64,000 nt of DNA from Candidatus Latescibacterota bacterium (GCA_965248355.1 OZ252098.1:704001-768000), one strand, 5' to 3'; positions 46,726-64,000 are shown, numbered from the stretch's first letter. Numbers and translations are program-made. The notes: generated by a model not told the origin, from the sequence alone.

Positions 46726-46847
46726 CGCTGGCCTCGTGAGAGGCGAACCGCCGGGTGCGGCCCGGGTCCGCAAGGACGGCCGGGTGGCTTTCCTCCGAGG
46801 TCCTCAGGCCGTAATTTGGATACAGGACCTCCAAATTTGGACCGAAA

Positions 46848-47999
46848 ATGGAGATCATACAGCGATTCTTCCGTCCGCCGGAGCGCAGCTTCTTTCTCTT
46901 CGGCCCCCGCGGCACCGGCAAGTCGACATGGCTCCGCCAGCGATTCCCGGAAGCGCTCTGGGTGGACCTGCTCCAGCCCGAGGTCCATCGAGACCTGCTG
47001 GCCCGCCCCGAGCGCCTGCGGGACCTCGTCCTGGCCGCCGAGGGAAGGCCCGTCGTCATCGACGAGGTGCAGAAGGCGCCGGAGCTGCTCGACGTCGTCC
47101 ACGCCCTCATCGACGCCAGGAGCACCGTCTTCGCCCTCACCGGCTCCAGCGCCCGCAAGATCCGCAGGGCCGGGGTCGACCTGCTCGGCGGCCGGGCGGC
47201 GCGGCGGATCATGCCGCCCTTCATGGCGGCCGAGCTGGGCGGCCGTTTCGACCTCCAGCGCGCTCTGCGCGAGGGCATGCTGCCCCTGGTATGGGGCTCC
47301 CCCGAGGGCCCGGACGCGCTGCGGGCGTATGCCTCCCTCTACCTTCGGGAGGAGGTCCAGGCGGAAGGACTGGTGCGCAACATCGGCCAGTTCTCGCGTT
47401 TCCTCGAAGCGATCTCCTTCGCCCACGGCGCTCTGCTGAACGTCACCAACCTGTCCCGCGATTGCGCCGTGGGACGCAAGAGCGCCGAGGGCTACGTCGA
47501 GATCCTCGAGGACCTGCTCCTCGCCTTCCGCCTGCCCGTCTTCCGCCGCCGCGCCGGCCGCCGGGTCACGGCCCGGCCGAAGCTCTACCTCTTCGACGCC
47601 GGCGTCTTCCGCTCCCTGCGGCCCACGGGCCCCCTCGACCGTCCGGAGGAGATCGAAGGCGGCGCCCTCGAAGGGCTGGTGGCCCAACATCTGCGGGCCT
47701 GGGTCGACCTGACTCCGGAGGAGCACAGCCTCTCCTTCTGGCGCACGTCCTCCGGGACCGAGGTCGACTTCGTGGTCTACGGCGAGCAGGGGCTGTGGGC
47801 CTTCGAGGTCAAGAATTCGGCCGCCGTCCGGGGCTCGGATCTGCGGGGCCTGCGGGCCTTTTGCCAGGACTACCCCGAGGCCCGGCCCGTCCACCTGTAC
47901 CGCGGCGCCGACCGCCTGCGCGTGGACGGCGTCCTGTGCCTGCCCGTGGACGACTTCCTCCGGCAACTGAGACCGGAGCGGCCGCCCTGGCCGGACTAG
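46848..47999 (+). CDS. AAA_14 ATPase with DUF4143 domain
   Basis: GPRGTGKST, IDEVQK.P, LTGSS, KLYLFDAG, FWRT..G.EVDFV, EVK. Confidence 0.92.
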   Translation: MEIIQRFFRPPERSFFLFGPRGTGKSTWLRQRFPEALWVDLLQPEVHRDLLARPERLRDLVLAAEGRPVVIDEVQKAPELLDVVHALIDARSTVFALTGSSARKIRRAGVDLLGGRAARRIMPPFMAAELGGRFDLQRALREGMLPLVWGSPEGPDALRAYASLYLREEVQAEGLVRNIGQFSRFLEAISFAHGALLNVTNLSRDCAVGRKSAEGYVEILEDLLLAFRLPVFRRRAGRRVTARPKLYLFDAGVFRSLRPTGPLDRPEEIEGGALEGLVAQHLRAWVDLTPEEHSLSFWRTSSGTEVDFVVYGEQGLWAFEVKNSAAVRGSDLRGLRAFCQDYPEARPVHLYRGADRLRVDGVLCLPVDDFLRQLRPERPPWPD

Positions 48000-49109: not shown

Positions 49110-49247
49110 GGGCTGGCCTTTCCGTGTTGGGTTTGCAGGTCGGGCACCAAACTACGACGACCCCGGAGGCGTCCGCCACGCGGGCCGGCGCCTCCGCCGG
49201 AATCCCCGAGCGAGCATGACGGACAGTGCCGCCCCGCTTCGCCCGGC

Positions 49248-49437: not shown

Positions 49438-49500
49438 ATAGCACATGCTATAAGATGATTGACAATTCACGCCACCATGGGGTACACTATGATGTAATCA
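49438..49500 (+). promoter_or_regulatory. Promoter and candidate operator of the defence operon
   Basis: Palindrome ATAGCA-CA-TGCTAT at 49438-49451; TTGACA (49459)-N18-TACACT; AGGAGG upstream of ATG 49529. Confidence 0.6.
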
Positions 49501-49528: not shown

Positions 49529-52500
49529 ATGTCATCCGTTCTCTCGGACATGCTTCCCGGAGATTACCCCCGTAGGATCAAGAGCATCCGGGGCCTCCGC
49601 GGTCTGACGCAGGCGCAGTTCGCCGAACTCGTCGGCGTCTCCTTTGCCTCCGTCAACCGCTGGGAGAACGGACAGTCCCGCCCCAACAACCTGGCCTGGC
49701 GGCGCGTCGTCGAGTTGGAGAACCTGCCGGCAGACGGGGCGGACAAGCCCTCGGCCGACGAAGTACCCCAGTCCCCGAGCATGGACTTCTCAGCCGATCC
49801 CGAGGCGGTCTCCGCCGTCGCCGAGGCCCATCGCCTCGCCAGCGGCCACCTCTTCAACCCCGCCTTCGCCACCGAGACATCGCTGATCGACCCGCTCCCG
49901 CATCAGCGCATCGCCGTGTATCAGCGAATGCTCCAGCAGTCCCCCCTGCGATTCCTGCTGGCCGACGACGCCGGCGCCGGCAAGACCATCATGACCGGTC
50001 TGTACGTGCGCGAGATGCTGTCCCGCCGACTTCTGCGCCGCGTGCTCGTCGTGCCCCCGGCGGGCCTGGTCGGCAACTGGGAGCGGGAGATGCGCACCCT
50101 CTTCCGCCTGGCCTTCCGCATCGTGGGCGGGGCCGACGCGCGCGCCGGCAACCCCTTCCTCGGCCCCGAGAGCGACCTCGTCATCGTCAGCGTCGACACC
50201 CTGGCCGGGGAGCGCATGTTCGGCCACCTCAAGGATCCGCAGACCAACCCTTACGACCTCGTCGTCTTCGATGAGGCCCACAAGCTGTCCGCGGACCGCC
50301 AGCCCGACTTCCGGGTGCGCAAGACAGGCCGATACCGGCTGGCCGAGGCCCTGGCCTGCGCCCCGTCCGACGACAAGGACCGGTGGGAGCTGCCCTGGAC
50401 CGCGCAGCACCTGCTGCTGCTGACGGCCACTCCGCACATGGGCAAGGACCACCCCTACTACTACCTGTGGCGCCTGCTGCTGCCGGACGCCCTCTCCACC
50501 TTCGACGCCTTCGAGGAGTTCCCCCCGGACTCCCGGCAGCGGCACTTCATCCGCCGCACCAAGGAGGAGATGGTCCACTTCGACCGTCGGCCCCTCTACC
50601 CGCAGCGCAACTGCGACACCCTGAGCTACGAGTTGTCCCAGGGACCGGACGGCGAGCAGGAGCTGTACGACGAGACCACCGAGTACATGCGCTATCACTA
50701 CAACTGGGCCAAGGCGCTGAACCGTTCCGCCGCCCGCCTGGCCATGAGCGTCTTCCAGCGCCGCCTGGCCAGCTCCACCTATGCCCTCCTGCGCTCCTTC
50801 GAGCGCCGCCTCGAGAAGCTGGAGAGGCTCATCGACGACATCCGCAGCGGGCGCCTCACCGAGGAGCAGCTCGCGAGGCAGCAGCGACATCTGGGAAGGC
50901 TCGACGACTTCTTCGAGACGCGCACTCCCGACGAGGAGGCGGCCAGCGAGGACGGGGAACAGCACGAGGAGTTCGAATCCCGGGCCCTCGAAGGCACGGT
51001 GGCGGTCAACCTCGCGGAGCTGGAGGCGGAGCGTGTCAAGGTCGCCGGGTTGCTCGAGAAGGCCAAGAAGCTCTTTGACGCCGGCGAGGAGTCCAAGTTC
51101 GAGAAGCTGCGTGAGGTGCTCGCGGCGCCGCACTACCGCGACGAGAAGCTCATCATCTTCACCGAGCACCGGGATACGGCGGCATTCCTGGTCCGTCGCC
51201 TCGAAGGCCTCGGCTACACCGGCCGCGTCGCCCTGATCCACGGCGGCCTGGCCTACCCCGAGCGGGAGCGCCAGGTCGAGCTGTTCCGCCGGCCCGCCGA
51301 TCAGGGCGGGGCCAGCTATTTGGTGGCCACCGACGCCGCCGGCGAGGGGATCAACCTCCAGTTCTGCTGGCTCATGGTGAACTACGACATCCCCTGGAAC
51401 CCGGCCCGGCTGGAACAGCGCATGGGCCGCATCCACCGCTACGGCCAGAAGCACGATCCGGTGGTCATCGTCAACCTCGTGTCCGCCGGCACGCGCGAGG
51501 GCCGGGTGCTCAAGACGCTGCTCGACAAGCTCGAGGCGATCCGCCAACAGCTCAGCTCGGACAAGGTCTTCGACGTGGTGGGCCGTCTCTTCGAGGGGCT
51601 GTCCGTGCGGGACTACCTGGAGCAGGCGGTGACCGGTGAGGACGGCGGCCAGGCCGCAGCCAGTCAGATGGAAGGCCACCTCACCGAAGAGCAGGTCCTG
51701 GCCCTCGCGGCGAAAGAGCGCTCCCTCTACGGGGACGGCGGCGAGGTCCGCGGCCGGCTGGACGAACTCAACGAGGAGATGGAGCAGGAGAACTACCGCC
51801 GCCTGCTGCCCGGGTACGTGCGCCGTTTCGTCGAGAGATCAGCGCCGCTCCTCGACCTGCGCCTCGAAGGGGATCCGGGGGGCGCCTTCACCCTGGTCCC
51901 GGACCGGCCCCGCGCGGCCGATCCCCTGTTTCCGGCCCTCGAAGCCTACCCGGACGAGGCGAGGGAGCGGCTGACCGTGTACAAACCCGAGAGCCGCGAA
52001 GAAGCGATCTGGCTGCACCCCGGCGAGCCGGTCTTCGACAGCCTCTCGGCCTCGGTCCGGGAGCGTCTCGGGGCCGAAGGGCTTCGCGGCGCCGTGTTCA
52101 GCGACCCTTATGCCAGCGACGCGTACCTCTTCCACATCGCCCGGGTCAGCGTCCAGCAGCATCCTCCCGGGGATGGTCGCGCAGGGGATGGGCGCGGGGA
52201 GCCTGAAGGGGCCCCGCAACTGGTGGAGTCGCGCCTCGTCGGGCTGCGCCAGACCAGCGACGGCGCCGTGCAGGAGTGCCCCGTCGAGCACCTGCTCCTG
52301 CTGCGCGGAGCCGGCGGCATCGCCCCCGGCGGGGTGCCCCTGGCCACCCTGGCCCGCGGCATGGCCGGAGAGGCGGAAGATTTCCTCGAGGAGGAGGTGA
52401 ACGAGCAGATCGTGCAGACGCACCGCCAGCGCCGCTTGGACGATCTGCCCAGGCGCCTGGAGTTCGTCAACCGAGGCTTCGACTATCAGGCCGCGGAGCT

Positions 52501-53125
52501 GGCCGCCGCCCGGTCCAGTCTCAGGGAGAAGGCAGGTGCCGGGGACCGCCAGGCCGCCGAAGAGCTGGCCAAGGTCAGGGAACGGCAGCGAAGCCTCAAC
52601 GCCCAGCGCGCCCGCAGGCTCGCCGAGCTACGGGCCGAGGCGGACCTCATCCGGGCCGGGGAGGCCGAGTTCCTCGTGCACGCCCTGGTGGTGCCGGCCC
52701 AGGACGCCGGGGAGGTGGAGCGCTACGACGCCGATGTCGAGGCCATCGCCATGGCCGTGGCCGCCGGCTTCGAGGAAAGCCGGGGTGCCGAGGTGCGGGA
52801 CGTTTCCAAGCCCGAGCTGGCGAGGCGAGCCGGACTGCCTGACTGGCCGGGCTTCGACCTCCTGTCCCGGCGCGAGGGCATGGAACCGAGAGCCATAGAA
52901 GTCAAGGGACGGGCGGACACCGGCGGCGTAGAGTTGAGGGAGAACGAATGGGCCAAGGCCTGCAACCTGAGAGAGAGGTACTGGCTCTACGTCGTTTTCG
53001 ACTGCGCCACGCCCCGCCCCCGACTGGTGCGGGTGCGGGACCCCTTCGCCAAGCTGCTCGTTGGGGAACGAGAGTCCCGTGTCTTCGCCATCACGGCGGG
53101 GGCGGTAATGGCGGCGTCGGAATAG
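49529..53125 (+). CDS. XRE-HTH, SNF2 helicase and DUF3883 (PD-(D/E)xK-like) nuclease fusion
   Basis: LTQAQFAELVGVSFASVNRWENG; PLPHQ, LADDAGAGKT, DEAH, LLTATPH, GEGINLQ, EQRMGRIHRYGQ; GFDLLS...IEVKG...ENEW. Confidence 0.92.
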   Translation: MSSVLSDMLPGDYPRRIKSIRGLRGLTQAQFAELVGVSFASVNRWENGQSRPNNLAWRRVVELENLPADGADKPSADEVPQSPSMDFSADPEAVSAVAEAHRLASGHLFNPAFATETSLIDPLPHQRIAVYQRMLQQSPLRFLLADDAGAGKTIMTGLYVREMLSRRLLRRVLVVPPAGLVGNWEREMRTLFRLAFRIVGGADARAGNPFLGPESDLVIVSVDTLAGERMFGHLKDPQTNPYDLVVFDEAHKLSADRQPDFRVRKTGRYRLAEALACAPSDDKDRWELPWTAQHLLLLTATPHMGKDHPYYYLWRLLLPDALSTFDAFEEFPPDSRQRHFIRRTKEEMVHFDRRPLYPQRNCDTLSYELSQGPDGEQELYDETTEYMRYHYNWAKALNRSAARLAMSVFQRRLASSTYALLRSFERRLEKLERLIDDIRSGRLTEEQLARQQRHLGRLDDFFETRTPDEEAASEDGEQHEEFESRALEGTVAVNLAELEAERVKVAGLLEKAKKLFDAGEESKFEKLREVLAAPHYRDEKLIIFTEHRDTAAFLVRRLEGLGYTGRVALIHGGLAYPERERQVELFRRPADQGGASYLVATDAAGEGINLQFCWLMVNYDIPWNPARLEQRMGRIHRYGQKHDPVVIVNLVSAGTREGRVLKTLLDKLEAIRQQLSSDKVFDVVGRLFEGLSVRDYLEQAVTGEDGGQAAASQMEGHLTEEQVLALAAKERSLYGDGGEVRGRLDELNEEMEQENYRRLLPGYVRRFVERSAPLLDLRLEGDPGGAFTLVPDRPRAADPLFPALEAYPDEARERLTVYKPESREEAIWLHPGEPVFDSLSASVRERLGAEGLRGAVFSDPYASDAYLFHIARVSVQQHPPGDGRAGDGRGEPEGAPQLVESRLVGLRQTSDGAVQECPVEHLLLLRGAGGIAPGGVPLATLARGMAGEAEDFLEEEVNEQIVQTHRQRRLDDLPRRLEFVNRGFDYQAAELAAARSSLREKAGAGDRQAAEELAKVRERQRSLNAQRARRLAELRAEADLIRAGEAEFLVHALVVPAQDAGEVERYDADVEAIAMAVAAGFEESRGAEVRDVSKPELARRAGLPDWPGFDLLSRREGMEPRAIEVKGRADTGGVELRENEWAKACNLRERYWLYVVFDCATPRPRLVRVRDPFAKLLVGERESRVFAITAGAVMAASE

Positions 53126-53165
53126 CGCAGGCCAACCTCCTGGACCACTCGATGGAGAGCCCACC

Positions 53166-54476
53166 ATGCTGAAACGAATCCATATCCAAGGATACAAGTC
53201 TCTCGAGGACGTCGAAGTAAGCCTGTGCCCGCTCGTGGTTCTGTTCGGGCCAAACGCCGCCGGCAAGAGCAATTTGCTCGATGCCCTGCAACTGCTGTCG
53301 AAGCTGGGGACGAGCCGTACCCTGAAGGAAGCTTTCGATCCACCCTATCGCGGCAAGCCCCTCGAATCCTTCACCATCGGGAGCAAGGGAATCAAGGGCC
53401 TGCTCGAGCAGGACAGGCTTTCTTTTTCGATCGAGGCCGACTTGAGCCTCTCGGATGCGGTCGTCGAGGCTGTCAACCGACAAATACGAGAGATGCGCCG
53501 TCCACACGGGGAGGTCGGGTCTGAAGGGGAAGTCAAGGCTCCTACTCGAGTCCGCGAGCGGGAACTCCGCTATCGGATCGAAGTGGAGATGCTGCCCAGA
53601 TCCGGCATTCTGCGGGTAGCGGATGAATACCTGGCCGCCTTGAACAGCAAGGGTGAACCCACGGGAAAACGCAAACCCTTCTTTGAGCGGCAGGGAGAGA
53701 GGATCCATCTTCGGCATGAGGGCCAGGCGCATCCGACCTATTTCGACCGTTCCCTCGACCACAGCATCCTCTCCATGCCGCACTATCCGCCGCACTATCC
53801 GCATCTGGTGGCGGCTCGTCACGAGCTGGAGAGTTGGCTGTTCTTCTACTTCGAGCCCCGCGAACGCATGCGCGCCTCGAACCCGGTCAAGGAGGTTCGC
53901 CATATCGGCATGATGGGCGAAGAATTGGCGGCCTTCCTCAATACCATGAAGGCAACCGATGCCCGGAGGTTCAGGGGAGTCGAGAAGGCTCTGCATACCC
54001 TGATGCCGAACATCGATGGAATCGAGGTCGAGGTAAGTGATCTCGGCGAGGTTGAGATCCGTCTCAAGGAGGGTGGGGTGGCCATTCCCGCCCGTGTGCT
54101 CTCCGAAGGCACTCTGAGGATGCTTGGCCTCCTCGCTCTTACAGGGGTAGACGAAGGTCCGGCCCTGCTGGGGTTCGAGGAGCCGGAGAACGGAGTCCAC
54201 CCGCGGCGAATTGAGTTGATCGCCGAGTTGCTGAGGACCCAGGAGAGCCTGAACCAGATCCAGCATATCATCACCACACACTCCCCGATCCTGCCTGATC
54301 TGCTGGACGACGAGTCGCTGTTCGCCGTTCGCCGGCTGAACGGCCAGACTCACATAGATCCGTTTTCGACCTGGGGCCCGCTGAAGCGAAAGCAGGACAT
54401 CCGCCAAGCCTTCGCCGATGAGGAAGAGCGCCTGCCGGTTTCGGCGCGCATAATGAGAGGCGACTTCGATGCGTGA
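53166..54476 (+). CDS. ABC-type (AAA_21/AAA_15) ATPase no. 1
   Basis: GPNAAGKSN, LSEGT, FEEPENGVHP, TTHSP. Confidence 0.9.
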   Translation: MLKRIHIQGYKSLEDVEVSLCPLVVLFGPNAAGKSNLLDALQLLSKLGTSRTLKEAFDPPYRGKPLESFTIGSKGIKGLLEQDRLSFSIEADLSLSDAVVEAVNRQIREMRRPHGEVGSEGEVKAPTRVRERELRYRIEVEMLPRSGILRVADEYLAALNSKGEPTGKRKPFFERQGERIHLRHEGQAHPTYFDRSLDHSILSMPHYPPHYPHLVAARHELESWLFFYFEPRERMRASNPVKEVRHIGMMGEELAAFLNTMKATDARRFRGVEKALHTLMPNIDGIEVEVSDLGEVEIRLKEGGVAIPARVLSEGTLRMLGLLALTGVDEGPALLGFEEPENGVHPRRIELIAELLRTQESLNQIQHIITTHSPILPDLLDDESLFAVRRLNGQTHIDPFSTWGPLKRKQDIRQAFADEEERLPVSARIMRGDFDA

Positions 54477-55050
54477 GGTCGCCCTCTTCGTCGAGGACTA
54501 CGCACATCGGCAGGTCATCGGCGCTTTGGTTGAAAGGATAGCGGGGGACTGCTGTATCGGTGTACGACTCGATTGGAGGAATGCGGTAGGAGGCCACGGC
54601 AAAGTCGTCACGGAGCTTGAAGATTACATGCGAAACCTGTTGGCACAAGGCGGCCCCTTTCCCGATCTGGTAGTCGTTGCTACCGACGCGAACTGCAGGG
54701 GGTTGAACGATCGGCTTCAAGAGATCGGAGCGTGGGATATCCCAGCGCCCGTGATCCTGGCCGTACCCGATCCGCACATCGAACGCTGGCTGCTGCTCGA
54801 TGGAGCAGCCTTCAAGGCAGTCTTCGGCAAGGGGTGTGACGCCCCCGACCAGAAGTGCGACCGGAGGCGGTACAAGGAGCAGCTGATCAAGGCCATCCAT
54901 GCCACCGGAACCGTACCCCGGCTCGGAGGCATGGAATACGCCGAGGACATTGTGCAGGAGATGGATATCGAGCGCGTCGCCCAGCTGGACAGGTCCTTCA
55001 GGCGTTTCGTCACGGCTTTGCGAAACAGGTTCGGAGGCTGGCAATCATGA
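54469..55050 (+). CDS. TOPRIM-like partner protein (DUF4276/RloB-like) no. 1
   Basis: FVED, ATDAN, HIERWLLLD; overlaps the ATPase stop. Confidence 0.65.
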   Translation: MREVALFVEDYAHRQVIGALVERIAGDCCIGVRLDWRNAVGGHGKVVTELEDYMRNLLAQGGPFPDLVVVATDANCRGLNDRLQEIGAWDIPAPVILAVPDPHIERWLLLDGAAFKAVFGKGCDAPDQKCDRRRYKEQLIKAIHATGTVPRLGGMEYAEDIVQEMDIERVAQLDRSFRRFVTALRNRFGGWQS

Positions 55051-58000
55051 TTTCCGAGGACAAACGCCTCATCGAAGTCGCCTTCCCTCTGAAGCAGGTC
55101 TCCCTCGACTCCGTGCACGAGAAGAACGTGCGCCATGGCCACATCTCCACGCTGCATATCTGGCCCGCGCGCAGGCCGCTGGCGGCCTGCCGGGCGGCCC
55201 TGATCGCCACGCTGCTGCCCGACCCGGGCAATCCCGAGGAGCGCAAGGCGATTCTTGAACGCATGGCCGGGCGGATCATCGGGAGGCCCGAGCGCAAGCG
55301 CGTGAACGGCCGCGTGGTCGAGCGGGTCAAGGAGGAGACGGAGGGCGGTATCCTCCACTGGGGCCGGGAGAGAGAGCCGGATCTGGAATGGTTCCGTGCC
55401 GAGATCCGCAAAGCCTACGGCGGCAGGGCGCCCAAGGTGCTCGACCCCTTTGCGGGCGGCGGCGCGATTCCCCTCGAAGCGATGCGCCTGGGGTGCGAGG
55501 TGACGGCCATGGACATCAACCCGGTGTCCTGGTTCATCCTCAAGTGCACCCTGGAGTACCCCCAGAGGCTGGCCGGCCAGACCCGGCCGCTGCCCGGGTT
55601 CGCGCTGCAGGACCGGGAATTCATGCAGGCCTTCCTGAAGGCCAAGGGCTTCAAGGGCACCCGGCTGCGGAGTCTGCTGGATCGCCTTGGACACGGCGAC
55701 GGCAGCGACGTGCAGCTCGACGCTCTTCCCAGTGGGGACCGAATTGCCGATGCGGATCTCGCCTGGCACGTGCGCGCCTGGGGCCGGTGGGTGCTGGCGA
55801 GGGCGCGCAAGGAGCTGGCCTCCTGCTACCCGACCTATGCCGAGTTCGAGGCGCTGAAGCCGGGCGGGGACTTCGAGCCCCGGCGCATGCGGCTGCTGGA
55901 GGTCGACGACGCGGGCGCGCCCCAGGTCGATCCCCTCAACGCCGAATTCGACGAGGACTATCTGAAGAACCAGCACAACCCGCGCTGGGTCGCCAAGCTG
56001 GCGGTGGCCTATCTCTGGGCGCGGACCGTGGCCTGCAAGCAGTGCCGGGCCGAACTGCCCCTGTTGAAGACCCGCTGGCTGTGCAGGAAGGACCGCAAGC
56101 GGGTGCTGCTGACCATGGAGCCGAAGGCCGACCGGAGCGGCGTGGTCTTCGGCGTGCAGAGCGATGTGCCGCAGAACGGAGGCAACGGGGCGCAACGGCG
56201 GGAGCACGACCGGAGCCTTGGCGCGGGTACCATGTCGCGTACGGGTGCGGCCTGCCCTTGCTGCGCCGCCATCGCGACCATGGAGGACATCCGCTTGGAG
56301 GGTCGGGCGGGACGGTTGGGTGCGGTGATGACGGCCGTGGTCGTGGACGGACAGAATGGGAAGGAATACCGCCTGCCTAGGGACCATGAGCGGGCGGTGG
56401 CGGAGGTGACCGAGGAACGGCTGCAGGCGCTCTATGCGGAGATACCGTTCGGGTTGCCGGAGGAGCCTTTGCCACGCAGAGGAGCTCTGGGGTTCCGTGT
56501 TCCGTTGTATGGCTTCGACACGTGGCGGAAGCTGTTTACGAACCGGCAGCTGCTGGCCCTTGGGGAATTCGTTCGGAGCCTTCGAAGCCTGATGAAGGAA
56601 CTCGACGACTGGCCTGAGGATTGGCGCGAGGCCGTGATCGCGAATCTCGCGCTCGTCAACGACCGGCTAGCTGACTACTCCAGTTCGATCTGTTCCTGGA
56701 TCAATGGCGGCGAGATTCTTGGACACACCTTTGCACGCTTTGCACTTCCGATCATCTGGGACTACGCCGAGGTAAATCCGCTATCCAATTCATCTGGCAA
56801 CTTCATCGGGGCAGTTGAATGGGTTTCACGTTTCGGCGTACATGTTCAGGGAGCCGTTCAATCAGCGGAGGCGGCACGGGTACGGGGCCTCAGTGCAACA
56901 GAGGTGTCGGGCAAGTACGATGTGATCCTCACGGATCCGCCGTACTACGACGCCATCCCCTACTCCGATCTGATGGACTTCTTCCATGTGTGGATACGAA
57001 GGGCCACACAAGGCCTTCGCCACGAGTTGGACGTTGCCTTTCGCGACCCTCTGGGCCCCAAGTGGGACCACGCGAGCGGCGACGGGGAGCTCATAGACGA
57101 CGCTGGCAGATTCGGCGGCGACAAGGAGCGCTCCAAGCAGAACTACGAAGACGGCATGGCTCGCTCGTTCCGCTCGTGTAATGCTGCCTTGCGGCCGGAC
57201 GGGCGGCTCGTGGTCGTGTTTGCGAACAAGAATCCCGACGCTTGGGAGACTCTGGTCGCAGCGCTGATTCGGGCTGGCTTCGTCGTCAACGGCTCCTGGC
57301 CTATCCAGACAGAGAGAACTGCCAGGACTCGATCGATGGCTTCGGCTGCTCTCGCCTCTTCCGTATGGATCGTCTGCAAGAAGCGGTCCGCCTCCCGCCC
57401 CGGCTGGGACAACAAGGTCCTCGACGAAATGCGCGAGAACATCACCCGGCAGCTCCACGACTTCTGGGACGCCGGCATCCGCGGCCCCGACTTCGTGTGG
57501 GCCGCTACCGGACCGGCCCTCGAAGCCTTCAGCAAGTATCCCGTGGTCAAGAAGGCGAATTCCCCGGGCGAGCAGATGTCCGTTTCCGAGTTCCTGCGTC
57601 ACGTGCGCCGCATGGTCGTCGATTTCGTGGTCGGGCGAGTTCTGATCCCGGACGACGCCGCACCGACGGCGGATGGGCAGGAGGCTGAGACCGGCCTCGA
57701 CGACGTCACCACCTACTACCTGCTCCACCGCAATGACTTCGGCATGGGGGAGGCACCGGTCGGCGGCTGCATCCTCTACGCCCTGTCCTGCAACCTCTCC
57801 GACTCCGCCCTGGTCAACCAGCACGACCTCCTGACCCAGGCGGGCAAGCGGGGAGCCGTGGACGAAGACGATGAGGAGGAGGACGCGCCCGAAGAGGCCG
57901 AGGAGACGGGCGGCGGCGCCAAGGTGAAGTTGAAGCCTTGGCAGCGGAGGAAGGGCCGCAACCTCGGCTTGGAGGGGCAGGGGGGACGGCCAGCGCCCCT

Positions 58001-58271
58001 CATCGACCAGGTGCACAAGCTCATGCATCTCTGGCGCGCCGGGGACCAGGTGAAGGTGAACGAATACCTCGACACCCGCGGCCTGCCCCGCAGTGCCCTG
58101 TTCAACCAGATCCTCCAGGCGCTCATCGAGCTGGCCGCCGAAGGCTCGGAGGAGCGCTCGCTCCTGGAGTCGGTGAGCAACCACGCGGCCGGCCGCGGGG
58201 GAGTGCAGGCACGGAGGCAGAGGCAGTTTCAGTTCGAAAGAGCTGAGCCCGGACCGGAGGAAATCCGATGA
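55047..58271 (+). CDS. DUF1156-domain adenine DNA methyltransferase
   Basis: HISTLHIWPARRPLAACRA, LDPFAGGGAIPLEA (motif I), CKQC/CPCC Zn ribbon, TDPPYYD (motif IV). Confidence 0.93.
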   Translation: MISEDKRLIEVAFPLKQVSLDSVHEKNVRHGHISTLHIWPARRPLAACRAALIATLLPDPGNPEERKAILERMAGRIIGRPERKRVNGRVVERVKEETEGGILHWGREREPDLEWFRAEIRKAYGGRAPKVLDPFAGGGAIPLEAMRLGCEVTAMDINPVSWFILKCTLEYPQRLAGQTRPLPGFALQDREFMQAFLKAKGFKGTRLRSLLDRLGHGDGSDVQLDALPSGDRIADADLAWHVRAWGRWVLARARKELASCYPTYAEFEALKPGGDFEPRRMRLLEVDDAGAPQVDPLNAEFDEDYLKNQHNPRWVAKLAVAYLWARTVACKQCRAELPLLKTRWLCRKDRKRVLLTMEPKADRSGVVFGVQSDVPQNGGNGAQRREHDRSLGAGTMSRTGAACPCCAAIATMEDIRLEGRAGRLGAVMTAVVVDGQNGKEYRLPRDHERAVAEVTEERLQALYAEIPFGLPEEPLPRRGALGFRVPLYGFDTWRKLFTNRQLLALGEFVRSLRSLMKELDDWPEDWREAVIANLALVNDRLADYSSSICSWINGGEILGHTFARFALPIIWDYAEVNPLSNSSGNFIGAVEWVSRFGVHVQGAVQSAEAARVRGLSATEVSGKYDVILTDPPYYDAIPYSDLMDFFHVWIRRATQGLRHELDVAFRDPLGPKWDHASGDGELIDDAGRFGGDKERSKQNYEDGMARSFRSCNAALRPDGRLVVVFANKNPDAWETLVAALIRAGFVVNGSWPIQTERTARTRSMASAALASSVWIVCKKRSASRPGWDNKVLDEMRENITRQLHDFWDAGIRGPDFVWAATGPALEAFSKYPVVKKANSPGEQMSVSEFLRHVRRMVVDFVVGRVLIPDDAAPTADGQEAETGLDDVTTYYLLHRNDFGMGEAPVGGCILYALSCNLSDSALVNQHDLLTQAGKRGAVDEDDEEEDAPEEAEETGGGAKVKLKPWQRRKGRNLGLEGQGGRPAPLIDQVHKLMHLWRAGDQVKVNEYLDTRGLPRSALFNQILQALIELAAEGSEERSLLESVSNHAAGRGGVQARRQRQFQFERAEPGPEEIR

Positions 58272-59566
58272 TTACGTCGATTCGACTCGTGAACTTCAAG
58301 AACTTCGCCGACGAGACCCTGCGCGTCGGCCCGTTTACAGTAATCGTGGGCGCGAACGCCAGCGGCAAGAGCAATATCCGCGACGCCTTCCGCTTCCTGC
58401 ACGGCATCGGCCGGGGCTATACGCTGGCGGAGATCATCGGAGGTAAGTTCGGCCCTGGCGGACAGCGGGAATGGGAGCCGATCCGGGGTGCCCCGAACGA
58501 GATCGTAAGGCTTGAGCAAGCTGCCTCTGCGGTGTCCAATTCGGCGAAGGTGCCCTTCCACCGATCCTACCAGACATCTGAGTTCGCCATTCATCTCGAA
58601 TTCAAGTGGGAGGAGGGGGTTAGGATATGCTATTTGATCAGGGTGGGATCTGATCCACAGAGTCCTGAGGGGTTTAAGGTTCTAGAAGAAACGTTGACGA
58701 AGAGACCAGATACTGGGACCGAAGTGCCTCATCTCCCGGAGAAAAGTTGCGATCTGGGCCTATGTCTATTAAAGGGAACAGATTCCGGTGTGGAGATCGC
58801 AAGCCCGTCCATACCGAGCCTGACCCGAGTGCAGGAAAGTGATGTAGGAGAAGAGATGTGGCATGTGGCTGACGAGTTGCATTATACTCTTTCCCAGATG
58901 GGATTCTCGGAACTGTCTCCCGAGCGGATGCGGGAGCCTTCCTTTCCTGGTGCCAACATTCTGGGGCCATCGGGAGAGAATCTTCCGACGGTAATGGAGG
59001 GGATTTGCGCATCACCTGGGAAGAGAAGGGTTCTGGCGGAGTGGCTCGGAGAACTGACTCCAATGGATGTCCAGGATTTCGTTTTCCCTCGTGATCCCAG
59101 CGGGCGGGTCCATCTCATGATCCGCGAGACAAGTGGAAGAACTGTTTCCGCCTACAGTGCTTCGGATGGCACGCTCCGGTTCCTTGCCCTGCTGGCAATG
59201 TTGCTCCGGGACAGTTCCAAGGGCTTGTATTTCTTCGAGGAGATCGACACGGGCATCCACCCAGCGCGTCAATCGCTCTTGCTGGAACTGATCGAGAAGC
59301 AGGCTACAAAAGGGGGAGTTCAGATGATCACCACCACCCATGCGCCGGATCTGCTGACCCTTGTCAACGACACCACCTTCGAGGACATGTCCATCGTTTG
59401 CCGGTTGGAAGACTCGGACGACGCCATCATTCGTCAGGTGGCTGAACTGCCCAACGCGAGGAGATTGCGTAAGTCCGGAAGCGGGCTGGGAGGGCTGCTC
59501 ATCGAAGGCTGGATGGAAACCGCACTGGCTTTCACTGAGAAGAACGACAAGGGGGATGGAGGGTGA
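58268..59566 (+). CDS. ABC-type ATPase no. 2
   Basis: GANASGKSN, ASDGT, FEEIDTGIHP, TTHAP; ATGA coupling. Confidence 0.9.
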   Translation: MITSIRLVNFKNFADETLRVGPFTVIVGANASGKSNIRDAFRFLHGIGRGYTLAEIIGGKFGPGGQREWEPIRGAPNEIVRLEQAASAVSNSAKVPFHRSYQTSEFAIHLEFKWEEGVRICYLIRVGSDPQSPEGFKVLEETLTKRPDTGTEVPHLPEKSCDLGLCLLKGTDSGVEIASPSIPSLTRVQESDVGEEMWHVADELHYTLSQMGFSELSPERMREPSFPGANILGPSGENLPTVMEGICASPGKRRVLAEWLGELTPMDVQDFVFPRDPSGRVHLMIRETSGRTVSAYSASDGTLRFLALLAMLLRDSSKGLYFFEEIDTGIHPARQSLLLELIEKQATKGGVQMITTTHAPDLLTLVNDTTFEDMSIVCRLEDSDDAIIRQVAELPNARRLRKSGSGLGGLLIEGWMETALAFTEKNDKGDGG

Positions 59567-60135
59567 ACGTCCTTATCATCCCCGAAGATTTCCGCAATGA
59601 TCAGTACATCCTGAAGCCTCTCTTCTCGCGGTTCTTTCGATCTATTGGGAAGTCTCGTGTGCGTGTCAGAGTCTGCCGTGATCCTCTGCTTGGCGGCTAC
59701 GTGGAAGCGTTAAGGTCAGAGCGTATCGCGGAGGTCGTCAGAAGGCATTGGGGAATGACGGATGTCTTCGTCCTTATCATAGATCGTGACGGGGACAGGA
59801 ATCGGCGCCAGAGTCTCGATCGCCTCGAAGAGCAATTTGGCTGCGAGCAGATCTTCCTGGGGGAGAATGCCTGGGAGGAGATCGAAACCTGGGTCCTCGC
59901 GGGCCTGGACTTGCCGGGTGATTGGAGCTGGGCGGAGGTCCGCTCGGAGATCCACGTGAAGGAAGAGTACTTCGACCGGCTTGTCGTCGAACGCGGCTTG
60001 TCAGACGCGCCCGGCGGTGGCCGTAAGCCTCTGGGAGAAGAGGCATCGCGCCGGATCGATGCGATCCGACAGAAGTGCCCCGAGGACTTCGATGCACTTG
60101 CCAAGCGTCTGGGGACCGCTGCCGGCGTCACATGA
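59563..60135 (+). CDS. TOPRIM-like partner protein no. 2
   Basis: IPED, IDRDGD, EIETWVLAG; GTGA coupling. Confidence 0.65.
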   Translation: MNVLIIPEDFRNDQYILKPLFSRFFRSIGKSRVRVRVCRDPLLGGYVEALRSERIAEVVRRHWGMTDVFVLIIDRDGDRNRRQSLDRLEEQFGCEQIFLGENAWEEIETWVLAGLDLPGDWSWAEVRSEIHVKEEYFDRLVVERGLSDAPGGGRKPLGEEASRRIDAIRQKCPEDFDALAKRLGTAAGVT

Positions 60136-60147
60136 GGAGAGCATCAA

Positions 60148-60458
60148 GTGCTTGATCAGAACACCCTGGATGACATCATCCGGCGCATCGTGGAGGTCGC
60201 GCAGCCGGAGCGCATCGTCCTCTTCGGGTCCGCCACCGGGGCGTCATGACACGGAACAGCGATGTGGATCTTCTCATCATCAAGGAGGGGGGGGACGCGA
60301 ATCTCAGGACCCGGATCTACGAGAAGCTGTACGGCGTTCCCGTCGCGGTCGATGCGATCCTGGTTTCGCCGGCGGACGTAGAGCGCTACAAGGACAGCCA
60401 TGCGTTGGTCATCAAGCCGGCGCTGGAGGAGGGAAGGGTGGTCTATGAGTCCACCTGA
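60148..60458 (+). pseudogene. Minimal nucleotidyltransferase (MNT) antitoxin, frameshifted
   Basis: IVLFGSA, then a frameshift at about 60238, then (RG)VMTRNSDVDLLII...EG.VVYE. Confidence 0.8.
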
Positions 60459-60585
60459 GCGGTTTCCGCGGGATGATCCGCGCTGTCCAGGCCTTGACCG
60501 GCCGGTGTCCGAAGAGGCGCACCAGGATGCGACAGAGATCGCTCAGGCTGTAATCCAGTGGGCGGAGGAGCGGCTGCCAAGATGA
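60445..60585 (+). pseudogene. HEPN toxin remnant with a large internal deletion
   Basis: Only N-terminal MSPPERFPRDDPR and C-terminal PGLDRPVSEE...IAQAVIQWAEERL remain (46 aa). Confidence 0.65.
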
Positions 60586-61865
60586 TCACATTGGTCGAAG
60601 CCTTGAATTATCGATGCCTCCGGTACGTCTCGAGGCCGCTCGGTCCGTTCCACGTCCTCGTTGGGCCGAACGCTTCCGGCAAGACGACCTTTCTCGATGT
60701 CGTCGGCTTTTTTCGGGACCTGATGTCGGAAGGGCTGGATGAGGCGGTCTCGAGCCGGACCAGGAATCCGAAGGACCTCCTCTTCTTGCGTTTGGGCGAC
60801 AGGTTTGAGTTGGCCCTCGAGGCACGTATCCCCGATGAATTGCGTGAGCGGACGGCGAGACCGGAGCTGGACACGGCTCGGTATGAGGTCGCGGTCGGTT
60901 TCGACGAAACGCAGCGCCAGTTCGAGCTGAAGGCCGAGAAGTTCCTGCTCAAGGGAAGGCAGGAGGTGGAACTACCACCGCGCTCCCTGTTTCCCATGTC
61001 TTCCCGCCCACCCGATTCCCTGCTGCGGCCTGAGGGACTTGGGGATAGAATGGTCGTTTCCAATAGAGCACCGCATGAGGGACTGCAGAATGATATGGTG
61101 CTTTACGGGGAGACCGAGGATACCGAGGGGCAGGGTTTCAACCTCTGGTTCAAACTCGGAGCGAGGAACTCGGGGCTCGGCAATCTCCCGGAGGACACGA
61201 ACTCCTTTCCTGTTGGAGTGTGGTTCCGCGAACTACTGGGCACGGGTGTGCAGCAGTTCGTCCTCAACAGCTTGGCCATCAGAAAACCGAGCCCGCCGAT
61301 CCGGGTCACGGGGTTTTCCCCCGACGGATCGAATCTGCCCTGGGTCGTGGACCGTCTGAGGCAGGAGAATGGGGCCAGGTTCCAGGACTGGATGAACCAC
61401 CTGCGAACGGTGCTCCCGGATCTGGAGGAGATCTCGACGGTTGAACGCCCGGAGGACAGGCATTGCTACATGGTCTACGAGTACCATGGCGGGCTGAAAG
61501 TCCCTTCCTGGCTGGTATCCGACGGCACCCTCCGGCTGACAGCGCTGACCCTTCCCGCCTACCTGGAGGATCTCCAAGGGATCTTCCTGGTCGAGGAGCC
61601 CGAGAACGGGATCCATCCAGGCGCCGTAGCCGCCGTGCATGACTCCCTTTCCTCCATCTATGGTGCTCAGGTTCTGCTGGCGACTCATTCTCCGCTGCTA
61701 TTGAACGCCGCTGGATCGGGTGACGTGCTGTGCTTTGCCAAGGCTGACAGGGGAGCGACCGACATCGTGCTGGGTACCGAACATCCCATGCTCCAACAGT
61801 GGCGTGGAGACGTCAATCTCGGCACGCTGCTCGCGTCGGGGATTCTGGGGGGACTGAAGAAATGA
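60582..61865 (+). CDS. ABC-type ATPase no. 3 (resembles MADS Mad3), with no partner gene
   Basis: NYRCLRY, VGPNASGKTTFLD, VSDGTLRL, EEPENGIHP, ATHSP, W.G.V.LGTL.ASG.LG tail. Confidence 0.85.
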   Translation: MITLVEALNYRCLRYVSRPLGPFHVLVGPNASGKTTFLDVVGFFRDLMSEGLDEAVSSRTRNPKDLLFLRLGDRFELALEARIPDELRERTARPELDTARYEVAVGFDETQRQFELKAEKFLLKGRQEVELPPRSLFPMSSRPPDSLLRPEGLGDRMVVSNRAPHEGLQNDMVLYGETEDTEGQGFNLWFKLGARNSGLGNLPEDTNSFPVGVWFRELLGTGVQQFVLNSLAIRKPSPPIRVTGFSPDGSNLPWVVDRLRQENGARFQDWMNHLRTVLPDLEEISTVERPEDRHCYMVYEYHGGLKVPSWLVSDGTLRLTALTLPAYLEDLQGIFLVEEPENGIHPGAVAAVHDSLSSIYGAQVLLATHSPLLLNAAGSGDVLCFAKADRGATDIVLGTEHPMLQQWRGDVNLGTLLASGILGGLKK

Positions 61866-63184
61866 CCAAGATAGAGGGGTTTCGAGTAAGAAACTTTAAG
61901 CTGCTCAAGGATGTGACATTGGGCCGCTTGTGGAACCAGCGGGAGGAGCGGCCTCTCACTCCCATGACGGCGGTAATCGGCAGGAACGGAGTAGGGAAGA
62001 GTGTTCTCTTCGATGCATTCGGATTCCTCGCCGACGCCTTGAGACTCGGTGTCGAAGAGGCTTGCGACGCCCGCGGTCGCGGCGGCTTCGAGAAGCTGCG
62101 GACCCAGGGAGAGACGGGGCCTATCGAGTTCGAGGTGTACTATCGGGAACATGGCAACGCCCGGCCGATAACCTATGAGATCGCCATTGAAGCAGACGAG
62201 TCGGGGCGTCCCTGCGTGTCGCGGGAGCGTCTCAGGCAGAGAAGGAGAAACCAGAGCTATGGTCGACCGTTCTCGTTCCTGTGGCTGAATGACGGCCGGG
62301 GTGTGGCATGGAAGGGAGAGGAGGGGTACGAAGCGAAGGACATCCACATGAGGGGCTTGGTGGACGAAGCAATCGCGGAAGAGGATATCGAGAAGAAGCG
62401 ATCGAAGGTGGAAGAGCTGATAAGGCTGATCAGGGAGGAGGAGCCCAACGAGACCGAACAGATCGAGTTGGAGGACCCCCACAGGCTTGGCATTGCTACG
62501 GTTGGCGCCTTGAAGCAACATCCGAGAATCTCCGCATTCCGCCGCTTTATCGAAGGATGGTACCTGAGTTACTTCACTCCGGCCGCGGCTCGCAGCTTGC
62601 CCTTGGCCGGCCCTCAGAAGCATCTGAATATCCAGGGTGACAATCTCGGCAACGTCGTGCAATTCCTGGAGCGCGAACATCCGCAACGTTTCAAGGCCGT
62701 CCTGAAGGAGATTGCCGGAAGGATTCCGGGCATAAACGAAATCGACACGGAACCAACCAGTGACGGCAGGCTGCTCCTGCGGTTCAACGACAGGAGCTTT
62801 CAGGATCCCTTCTATGCCCAGGAAGTATCCGATGGAACGCTGAAAGTATTCGCCTACCTGCTGCTGCTCGAAGATCCGGATCCGGCCCCGTTTCTCTGCA
62901 TCGAGGAGCCGGAGAACGGCCTCTATCACAAGCTCCTGGAGACCTTGGCCAACGAATTCCGGGAACATGCGAGCGGAAGCAAAGGCTCGCAGGTCTTCGT
63001 TACGACCCACCAGCCGTATTTCGTGGACGCACTCTCCCCGGAGGAGGTCTGGATCCTGGAGAAGGGTGAGGATGGTTTTTCAAAGATTCGACGAGCCAGC
63101 GACGATCCAACTGTGAACAACATGGTCGAGGAAGGATTGCCGTTGGGCGGTCTTTGGTTCAGCGAGTACCTCGACGCGAGGTGA
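61862..63184 (+). CDS. ABC-type ATPase no. 4
   Basis: GRNGVGKS, VSDGTLK, IEEPENGLYH, TTHQP; ATGA coupling. Confidence 0.9.
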   Translation: MTKIEGFRVRNFKLLKDVTLGRLWNQREERPLTPMTAVIGRNGVGKSVLFDAFGFLADALRLGVEEACDARGRGGFEKLRTQGETGPIEFEVYYREHGNARPITYEIAIEADESGRPCVSRERLRQRRRNQSYGRPFSFLWLNDGRGVAWKGEEGYEAKDIHMRGLVDEAIAEEDIEKKRSKVEELIRLIREEEPNETEQIELEDPHRLGIATVGALKQHPRISAFRRFIEGWYLSYFTPAAARSLPLAGPQKHLNIQGDNLGNVVQFLEREHPQRFKAVLKEIAGRIPGINEIDTEPTSDGRLLLRFNDRSFQDPFYAQEVSDGTLKVFAYLLLLEDPDPAPFLCIEEPENGLYHKLLETLANEFREHASGSKGSQVFVTTHQPYFVDALSPEEVWILEKGEDGFSKIRRASDDPTVNNMVEEGLPLGGLWFSEYLDAR

Positions 63185-63855
63185 TCAGAGTGCACTTCGA
63201 GATCCTTGTCGAAGATATTTCGGGCAAGCGAGCGCTGGAGATCCTGGTTCCGAAGATCGTGGACGACCAGCACACCTTCCGGGTTCATGCGTACAGAGGA
63301 GTCGGGCGCATTCCAAGGGGGTTGACGCGTGGAACTGAGGCAAAGTGGCGCTTCCTGCTCGACCAGCTTCCGAGGTTGCTCGGGGGATATGGGAGGACAT
63401 TTGCCGGGTATCCCGCCAACTACCGCGCCGTGGTGATCGTGGTCTGCGACCTGGATGACAGGTGCCGGAGAGCCTTCCGTCGCGAGCTCCTGGAAGTCCT
63501 GGAGGACTGTAGCCCGAGACCGGAGACCCGCTTCTGCATCGCCATAGAAGAGGGGGAGGCCTGGCTGCTGGGCGACCTTCCCGCGATCAAGGCAGCCTAT
63601 CCGCAGGCCAGGGAGGACGTCCTCAAGCGTTACAGGAACGACTCGATTTGCGGAACCTGGGAATGTCTCGCGGACGCCGTCTTCAGGGGCGGATCGAGTG
63701 TGCTGAAAGGGAAGGGGTGGTGGGCAGTGGGCGGGCAAAAGTCAGCATGGGCGGAGAGAATCGTCCCGGAGATGGACGTCGAAAACAACGCGTCGCCCAG
63801 TTTTCGGTACTTCAAGGAGAAGATCATGGAGCTTGCCAAGGAGCGGACGACATGA
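63181..63855 (+). CDS. TOPRIM-like partner protein (DUF4276-like) no. 3
   Basis: ILVEDISG, VCDLDD, IEEGEAWLLGD, N.SPSF..F. Confidence 0.75.
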   Translation: MIRVHFEILVEDISGKRALEILVPKIVDDQHTFRVHAYRGVGRIPRGLTRGTEAKWRFLLDQLPRLLGGYGRTFAGYPANYRAVVIVVCDLDDRCRRAFRRELLEVLEDCSPRPETRFCIAIEEGEAWLLGDLPAIKAAYPQAREDVLKRYRNDSICGTWECLADAVFRGGSSVLKGKGWWAVGGQKSAWAERIVPEMDVENNASPSFRYFKEKIMELAKERTT

Positions 63856-64000
63856 CAACCAAGACATCCCGGAAGCCCTGGCACGAGGTGGTGCAACTGC
63901 GCGACGACCTGAAGACGGGGGAGCTGTCCCTGGCTGTCTTCGCCGCTGACCTCTACGACGTGGTCATGCAGAGGGGGCAGCGGCCGGTGTACGAGCAGCC
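63852..64000 (+). CDS. DUF499 AAA+ ATPase, N-terminus only (cut off by the window end)
   Basis: MTTKTSRKPWHEVVQLRDDLKTGELSLAVFAADLYDVV matches the PW..V...R.D...G.....FAADL start of DUF499 proteins; ATGA coupling. Confidence 0.8.
   Translation, partial: MTTKTSRKPWHEVVQLRDDLKTGELSLAVFAADLYDVVMQRGQRPVYEQ

Follow-up and report, generated by a model that had tools for sequence, protein, structure and literature searches.

The window analysed here is a stretch of 64,000 nucleotides (nt) from a Candidatus Latescibacterota bacterium (G000:C1:704001-768000, within a single-contig genome of 5.5 Mb), and our subject is the operon that fills its last part, from position 49529 to the window end, with every gene on the + strand. 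From Pfam, PADLOC and NCBIfam scans, which gave the gene identities, the core of this operon is recognised as the named Hma system, alias the Type-1 BREX-related system, and between its three genes stand four ABC ATPases, three small TOPRIM-like partners and the remains of an MNT-HEPN pair. The features, with their support, are the following:

49459..49494, + strand: two overlapping sigma-70-like promoter matches, 35-70 nt 5' of hmaA
49529..53125, + strand: HmaA, with an XRE-type helix-turn-helix (HTH), an SNF2 helicase and a C-terminal PD-(D/E)XK nuclease (NOV_C/DUF3883); PADLOC HmaA, Pfam
53166..54476, + strand: ATPase1, an ABC (AAA_21) ATPase, HEC-01A-like; PADLOC, Pfam AAA_21
54469..55050, + strand: TOPRIM1, a small DUF4276-like partner; sub-cut-off Pfam DUF4276, weak HEC-01B
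55047..58271, + strand: HmaB, a DUF1156 amino-methyltransferase; PADLOC HmaB, Pfam DUF1156
58268..59566, + strand: ATPase2, an ABC ATPase resembling PDC-M07A and hypervariable in an insert, residues 81-215; PADLOC
59563..60135, + strand: TOPRIM2, a small partner whose family lacks a Pfam model; MAD4/DUF4276-like in its motifs and fold
60148..60458, + strand: MNT nucleotidyltransferase pseudogene, in two frames (60148-60249 and 60246-60458); Polbeta, relatives
60445..60585, + strand: HEPN stub, 46 codons left after the internal loss of 254 bp; comparison with the intact G012 gene
60582..61865, + strand: ATPase3, a MAD3-family ABC ATPase without a MAD4 partner, a single-gene insertion; NCBIfam MAD3 equivalog
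61862..63184, + strand: ATPase4, a HEC-01A ABC ATPase; PADLOC PDLC04182
63181..63855, + strand: TOPRIM3, HEC-01B (DUF4276-like); PADLOC
63852..64000, + strand: HmaC, a DUF499 AAA+ ATPase, of which the window holds only the N-terminus; the rest was read from the genome

The gene order on a single strand, as the original prediction had described it, was confirmed by gene reading and profile scans, and all seven of the ATGA/GTGA overlaps it had listed (55047, 58268, 59563, 60582, 61862, 63181 and 63852) were found in the sequence. ATPase1 and TOPRIM1 overlap by 8 nt, and the only gapped junctions are those between HmaA and ATPase1 (40 nt) and between TOPRIM2 and MNT (12 nt). A terminator scan gave fewer matches than in shuffled sequence. 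HmaC extends past the window to the window-equivalent position 67166, giving a protein of 1104 aa in the genome sequence (L001 14853-18167). Contigs of the sequencing run X1 span all junctions from HmaB-ATPase2 to TOPRIM3-HmaC with 0 differences, and an assembly chimera is ruled out as far as these contigs reach; the run may, however, come from the source sample itself and so does not count as independent support.

The three core genes are well defined. HmaA matches the PADLOC HmaA model at 5.8e-160 over residues 84-1157 and contains the Pfam domains HTH_3, SNF2-rel_dom, Helicase_C and NOV_C, while a pattern search finds the motifs GAGKT, DEAH and D1105...E1124-x-K1126. HmaB matches its PADLOC model at 7e-118 and Pfam DUF1156 at 9.9e-19, with DPFAGGG at residue 133 and DPPY at residue 630 (pattern search), and the full-length HmaC matches PADLOC HmaC at 3e-73 and DUF499 at 3.2e-16, with a P-loop and the motif LVLLDE. 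HmaC is co-directional with hmaA and hmaB, and its start overlaps TOPRIM3 in an ATGA. The core thus belongs to an already named system, all three of its genes matching the PADLOC Hma models.

Two details of the core proteins vary among orthologues. The XRE-type HTH at HmaA residues 1-83 (window 49529-49780) is missing from the orthologues in genomes G047, G055, G050 and G054, in which the matches begin at residue 83-85, and in G038 a separate HTH gene adjoins hmaA; the fused HTH may be an autoregulator. Around HmaB residues ~585-615 (window about 56800-56890) and HmaC residues ~1005-1035 identity dips to 30-39% between orthologues that are otherwise 70-90% identical, and these dips may mark specificity regions, one in the methylase and one in the C-terminal domain of the DUF499 protein. 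PMC12839542 names a 'hypervariable C-terminal' domain, with which the HmaC dip is in agreement.

The four ATPases share 20.2-27.8% identity in pairwise global alignment, with Walker A, the S(D/E)GT signature, Walker B and the H-loop kept in all four. The earlier statement that they share the ABC motifs and are no recent duplicates is thereby upheld, recent paralogy being ruled out by an identity of 20-28%. The three small partners are 22-34% identical to one another, and a joint alignment of TOPRIM1, TOPRIM2, TOPRIM3 and MAD4-family partners shows acidic motifs common to the four families, (E/A)D, DxD/E/N and ExW, which, read by pattern, would correspond to MAD4 residues D12, D81/E83 and E119/E121. 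The description of three TOPRIM-like partners stands as regards these motifs and the HEC-01B match of TOPRIM3, and less well as regards Pfam DUF4276, for which TOPRIM1 (7.5e-6) and TOPRIM3 (7.9e-6) both lie below the cut-off (26.7 bits versus 30.2); TOPRIM2 is TOPRIM-like by its motifs and a fold match.

ATPase4 and TOPRIM3 match the PADLOC HEC-01A (PDLC04182, 1.1e-190) and HEC-01B (2.7e-91) models, respectively, and in this order they make up a HEC-01 A+B pair. ATPase1 matches HEC-01A at 3.6e-56 and Pfam AAA_21 at 3e-29, and its partner TOPRIM1 matches HEC-01B weakly (2.2e-4). In TOPRIM1 the second acidic motif reads D-A-N in 5/5 aligned orthologues, whereas its relatives have DxD.

ATPase2 matches the PADLOC PDC-M07A model (6.1e-55), and no PADLOC PDC-M07B match was found for TOPRIM2 or for two of its orthologues, so that the two genes do not make up a PDC-M07 A+B pair; genuine A+B pairs are embedded in the loci of G011, G075 and G016b. 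The ATPase itself is sharply divided: mean pairwise identity among 13 orthologues is 90% over residues 1-80, 33% over residues 81-215 and 72% over residues 216-432, and among 27 homologues the middle part is 7-18% identical to the window protein between flanks of 70-98%. This hypervariable insert, at window 58508-58912, may represent a sensor domain that is subject to diversifying selection or to the swapping of segments. Milder dips are seen in ATPase3 (27-38%) and ATPase4 (29-33%).

TOPRIM2 has no Pfam or NCBIfam match and no firm PADLOC match. Its family is large, with 2555 homologues, none of the 120 listed carrying a Pfam domain, and 551 cluster representatives matching at E <= 0.001. In 69 aligned sequences E8, D13 and E108 are invariant, and D74, D76 and E106 are at least 90% conserved. 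An AF2 model (pLDDT, the predicted local distance difference test score, 97.4) gave no Foldseek match in the PDB at E <= 0.001; its top fold match, of middling score, is the C-terminal TOPRIM region of the B. pseudomallei OLD protein (6nk8_B, Z 8.3, root-mean-square deviation 4.1, 155 aligned residues), and AriB (8v46_D, Z 6.7), Ts OLD (6p74_A, Z 6.5) and GajA (Z 6.1) follow. In 23 of the 24 TOPRIM2 places found in the phylum (22 of 168 genomes), the gene immediately 5' is an ATPase2 homologue. From its motifs and its adjacency to ATPase2, together with a tentative fold match, we take TOPRIM2 as a putative MAD4/DUF4276-like partner. A complex prediction for ATPase2 (13 rows) and TOPRIM2 (69 rows) scored 0.03 against a mark of 0.32, run without controls, and carries no weight either way. 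Elsewhere, in G047, a 51-residue TOPRIM2-like fragment lies directly upstream of hmaA (L042 9215-9367 / L131), outside the usual junctions.

The MNT-HEPN pair had been called dead, and comparison with relatives agrees. Compared with 3/3 aligned relatives, MNT has lost 1 nt near 60236 and is thereby broken into two frames, with a Polbeta match of 0.002 on its second piece, and HEPN has lost 254 bp: window 60483/60479 joins L034 5458 to 5712, both within the intact G012 gene (150 aa, Pfam HEPN 5.3e-25). The window thus holds no intact MNT-HEPN pair, and intact copies are embedded in G012 and G011.

The end of the HEPN stub also records the arrival of ATPase3. The stretch 60573-61847 is absent in G012 and G011, which have instead the ten bases GCAACCTGCC, in the last HEPN codons; the HEPN end supplies the final four codons and stop of ATPase3, which retains its ATGA overlap with ATPase4. 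In this comparison, ATPase3 entered as a single gene through a short-homology event inside the last HEPN codons. The ATPase3-less joint, with exactly these ten bases, also occurs in contigs of X5, X8 and X10 (three studies), and contigs of X5 and X8, in contrast to X1, have the extra MNT base at 60233-60235; the intact-MNT and ATPase3-less states therefore coexist in nature.

ATPase3 belongs to the MAD3 family, scoring 457.5 bits against a cut-off of 420 with the NCBIfam equivalog NF047739 (model positions 1-427). Among 44 loci with homologues 55-84% identical, a MAD4-family gene lies directly 3' of the ATPase3 homologue in 37 (one of which was the source of the query), is partial in 4 and absent in 3, and the partners from three other loci reach 195-209 bits against the MAD4 cut-off of 160 (3/3 tested). 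Here, ATPase4 follows ATPase3 directly, with no adjacent MAD4, and none of TOPRIM1-3 matches the MAD4 model NF047734 at 0.01. No MAD4 was found elsewhere in the genome by family search, whose controls matched nowhere, so that its absence rests on tblastn (best E 0.17). By these comparisons ATPase3 is a full-length orphan whose MAD4 partner appears lost, and by analogy with the published MAD3-MAD4 biochemistry it would be inactive alone. Because ATPase3 is orphaned, three TOPRIMs for four ATPases are no sign of a special design.

A conserved three-gene unit of ATPase3, ATPase4 and TOPRIM3 was considered and rejected: it occurs at 0/44 ATPase3 loci, and G012 and G011 hold ATPase4/TOPRIM3 without ATPase3. 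A PDB sequence search with ATPase3 returned only P-loop stretches of OLD nuclease and PtuA, and one with the MAD4-like partner returned nothing meaningful; the MAD3-MAD4 structures were not retrieved by sequence. The window's genome is rich in AAA_21-type ATPases, with 33 matches to the MAD3 model, of which only ATPase3 exceeds the cut-off; well over ten of the sub-cut-off matches lie outside the island, e.g. at C1:3493459, 3049141, 319832, 4315382, 2414670 and 2738385.

The operon as a whole is an 18-kb accessory island. In the genus-mates G073 and G068 its two flanks lie 0.8-0.9 kb apart, forming empty sites, and homology to the window stops at 49188/49207 and resumes at 67275; in G075 the same site holds an island of 24.9 kb. 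HmaB matches at E <= 1e-30 are found in 28 of 76 genomes of the order and in 2 of 10 of the genus. The origin of the island is mosaic, and its composition is graded: G+C content at third codon positions (GC3) is 0.90-0.97 in the flanking genes, 0.80-0.89 in the hma genes and 0.66-0.73 in the cassettes. The empty sites (L134 in G073, L135 in G068) contain 0.8-0.9 kb of other DNA with small open reading frames (ORFs), one of which resembles, by eye, the DUF5615 gene beside hmaC in G016b, there a Pfam match. Upstream, window 44719-47999 encodes a DUF6785/DUF6784 protein (1.3e-113, - strand) and an AAA_14/DUF4143 ATPase (+ strand); these genes, with host-like GC3, are outside the island.

We compared the orthologous cores at 13 places in 12 genomes of the same family (HmaB 74-86% identical), together with two degraded places. 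The core genes are contiguous in 0/13, and the expectation of variable cassettes at the same junctions was borne out, the 13 cores all holding different cassettes at both. Embedded ORFs were picked with a home-made GC3 filter that dropped those below 90 aa, so small genes may be missed, and were scanned with Pfam (112) and PADLOC (18). They include a TIR gene with a short prokaryotic Argonaute (pAgo), SPARTA-like, in G016a and G011 (L035, L038; pAgo_I 2.8e-167), a CBASS cyclase (1e-112) with Cap15 in G075 and G038 (L039, L048), Cap15 beside an insertion sequence (IS) element in G055, Avs2 (E = 0) in G016b (L052), a long pAgo with a PD-(D/E)XK gene in G038, Schlafen in G075, and GHKL-type ATPases in G047, G038 and G054, of which the G047 and G038 proteins contain a PD-(D/E)XK domain as well; HigB, STAND-like ATPases and transposases are also among them. 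AAA_21 genes number 4 in the window, 4 in G011 (one a fragment), 3 in G012, 3 in G016a (one frameshifted), 2 each in G075, G016b, G055 and G031, 1 each in G038 and G054, and 0 in G047. In G050 (L045/L046 and L064) the Hma operon looks split, with hmaA-hmaB at ~3.08 Mb and three kinds of transposase genes beside hmaB, and ATPase3-MAD4-MNT-ATPase2-TOPRIM2-hmaC at ~3.78 Mb on the same contig.

Outside the family, four metagenome-assembled genomes (MAGs) labelled Candidatus Binatia carry Hma cores with HmaB 73-76% identical, and three of them (G076, G077 and G078) hold all four ATPase families, 58-84% identical, in the order HmaA-ATPase1-...-HmaB-ATPase2(-TOPRIM2)-ATPase4-TOPRIM3-ATPase3-MAD4-HmaC. 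In two of the Binatia-labelled loci, GC3 is 0.60-0.74 in the cassettes and 0.72-0.80 in the core. The number of cassettes in one core is thus high but recurrent, the same four families being present in three other genomes.

In our view, the locus is best explained, with a probability of about 0.7, as a restriction-like Hma core into which separable ABC-ATPase/TOPRIM modules have accreted, the whole being transcribed from one promoter. From their families, HmaB (a DUF1156 methyltransferase, DPPY) would mark host DNA, and HmaC (a DUF499 ATPase) and HmaA (an SNF2 translocase and PD-(D/E)XK nickase) would act on unmarked invading DNA. The modules that appear to have accreted between the core genes are three intact pairs, ATPase1/TOPRIM1, ATPase2/TOPRIM2 and ATPase4/TOPRIM3, a MAD3-type ATPase that probably arrived without its MAD4 nuclease, and the decayed MNT-HEPN pair. 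PMC13662399 describes MAD3-MAD4 as a 2:2 complex with ATPase and DNA-cleavage activity, MAD3 alone being inactive and MAD4 alone insoluble; by the same logic, the ATPase and nuclease of each intact pair here would assemble into a complex and be active in that state only. On the model of PARIS, the ATPase's variable insert may recognise a phage product and set the nuclease free as a second defence, perhaps in synergy with the core. All the genes are probably transcribed from one promoter 5' of hmaA, with translation coupled through the start/stop overlaps. The original prediction thus named the parts correctly, and its picture of a core with modules agrees with the evidence. Its idea of a guard or back-up battery is not new, having been proposed already by Payne (bioRxiv 10.1101/2024.01.29.577857) and in PMC12839542 (NAR 2026).

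Several points weigh against this explanation. With its D-A-N motif, TOPRIM1 may be non-cleaving, and the Z values of the TOPRIM2 fold matches (8.3, 6.7, 6.5 and 6.1) stand amid unrelated Rossmann-like matches of like Z. The two sigma-70-like matches in 19 kb are not above those in shuffled sequence (1.7 +/- 1.3), only their position being suggestive. In Payne's preprint, the tested HEC-01 representative gave no protection from the phages tried in E. coli, and in PMC11232893 (Liu 2024, on Halomonas meridiana) HmaB-dependent protection of T4 was not seen in Halomonas, which leaves methylation-based self-marking unproven. Finally, PMC13662399 reports that MAD3 and MAD4 are both required for MADS defence, which argues against independence, at least for the MAD3/MAD4 family.

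The last result would also fit a different role, in which the core of this Hma clade could not restrict without the ABC-ATPase/TOPRIM pairs, or at the least without ATPase2/TOPRIM2, these being its integral effector arms and not independent guards. ATPase2/TOPRIM2 is the most constant cassette, standing between hmaB and hmaC in most orthologous cores, and has an Hma gene within 1.5 kb in 14 of the 24 TOPRIM2 places; in every Halomonas hma locus, according to PMC11232893, an AAA_21 ATPase and a partner lacking annotation lie between hmaB and hmaC, the failure of HEC-01 alone to defend would be expected, and the four ATPase families travel with Hma in the Binatia-labelled MAGs at near-core divergence. 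However, the G047 core has no ABC ATPase at either junction, G075 and G079 lack ATPase2, and 37.3% of Hma systems have no embedded gene according to Payne; in PMC11232893 HmaA alone protected against T4, its helicase and nickase both being required. ATPase2/TOPRIM2 is more tied to Hma than the ATPase3 family, yet 10 of the 24 TOPRIM2 places show no Hma gene in their short flanks. As for ATPase3, an Hma gene stands within 7 kb at just 8 of the 44 loci, the ATPase3/MAD4 pairs being mostly outside Hma (36/44); in a sample of 10 of these 36, covering ORFs from about 230 aa upwards, 2 are in Type I restriction-modification (R-M) operons, 1 is near a mad2-like methylase and 7 are without a PADLOC neighbour at 1e-12. 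We therefore regard integral arms as quite improbable.

The decay seen in the locus raises a further alternative, the 'genomic sink' hypothesis discussed by Payne, under which the cassettes are passengers that accumulate and decay with no functional link to Hma, several being already inactive. The frameshifted MNT, the internally deleted HEPN, the orphaned ATPase3 and the D-A-N motif of TOPRIM1 in the window would fit it, as would the truncated TOPRIM3 of G012, the frameshifted ATPase3 of G016a, the fragmented ATPase1 of G011, the IS transposases of G055 and G050, and the broken hmaB and hmaC of G049. Against this, three pairs retain full-length frames, all ATPase motifs and the start/stop overlaps, orientation is kept throughout, and the ATPase3 insertion preserved the ATGA coupling to ATPase4. 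The four ATPase families also recur with Hma under another phylum-level label, and hypervariability confined to the ATPase2 insert resembles selection and not decay, so that we consider mere passengers very doubtful.

The boldest reading is that the cassettes are a co-selected sensor battery, in which four ATPase families would move with one Hma clade between phyla, their inserts detecting different phage products, and gene-by-gene additions through short homologies would keep the start/stop coupling. The same four families in the Binatia-labelled MAGs, with core-like divergence and in a different order, support such a battery, which we nevertheless hold to be rather unlikely. If it were true, Hma would be an integrase-free cassette rack, ATPase2 residues 81-215 would be the extreme case of a variable sensing insert, and the orphan ATPase3 might borrow TOPRIM3 as a shared effector.

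The locus is a richly loaded but ordinary example of Hma, as both the embedding and the back-up idea are already published, and it leaves knowledge of Hma unchanged. Payne defines Hma-embedded candidates and reports embedded genes in 931 of 1,485 Hma systems (62.7%), with 96.7% of the embedded genes co-oriented with the flanking system; the commonest embedded family is that of ABC ATPases with TOPRIM, NERD or PIN partners, proposed as a back-up once phage anti-defence proteins disable the system around them. PMC12839542, which renamed Hma as the DUF499-centred Type-1 BREX-related system, regards the OLD-ABC/TOPRIM modules of BREX and BREX-related systems, in at least 1242 taxa, as a back-up layer, and PMC11232893 describes the hma region as an insertion hotspot. 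What the present locus adds is the base-level history of the ATPase3 insertion and the hypervariable insert of ATPase2, neither of them met in the publications consulted, together with a natural series of 13 orthologous cores in one family and 4 under another phylum-level label, among which the cassettes are reshuffled. This series could test two published open points, namely whether the pairs are guards or stand-alone systems and by which route they become embedded. For annotation, a limit of three embedded genes per junction would miss such loci.

Compared with published Hma systems, the window agrees in all three core genes and their domains, in their arrangement as helicase-nuclease, DUF1156 methylase and DUF499 ATPase, and in the published layout of co-directional genes with guests at both internal junctions. 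It differs in the N-terminal XRE-type HTH of HmaA, which some orthologues lack, in an HmaC without the N-terminal HEPN of the HEPN-fused variant (1370 of 2446 taxa in PMC12839542), and in its six reading frames between hmaB and hmaC, whereas Payne's screen accepted at most three embedded genes between hma genes. The likeness to HEC-01 is strong for ATPase4/TOPRIM3 and weaker for ATPase1, both pairs being Hma-embedded as in that system, while TOPRIM1 departs from it in its weak match and its D-A-N motif. With MADS, the window shares a MAD3-family ATPase above the cut-off, whose homologues elsewhere precede MAD4 equivalogs, and a logic of split OLD-like ATPase and TOPRIM that fits all its pairs. 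It differs in having no MAD4 after ATPase3 and in its Hma context, and it holds no mad1-mad8 operon: besides mad3, only weak matches to mad2 (1.3e-9, HmaB) and mad4 (0.001, TOPRIM1) were seen among the matches listed, which for the ATPases comprised the best 25 families.

As for PARIS, the AriA models match the window ATPases at 1e-29 to 1e-41, far below the HEC-01 and PDC-M07 models, and no AriB model in PADLOC matches TOPRIM1-3 at E <= 0.01. PARIS (AriA/AriB), PrrC in EcoprrI and Gabija all have ABC ATPase sensors paired or fused with nucleases, and the locus has in common with them an architecture of ABC ATPase plus TOPRIM; some sensors of these types are triggered by anti-restriction proteins. 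PrrC and embedded PARIS also share with the cassettes of this locus both the position inside a restriction-type operon and the proposed back-up role.

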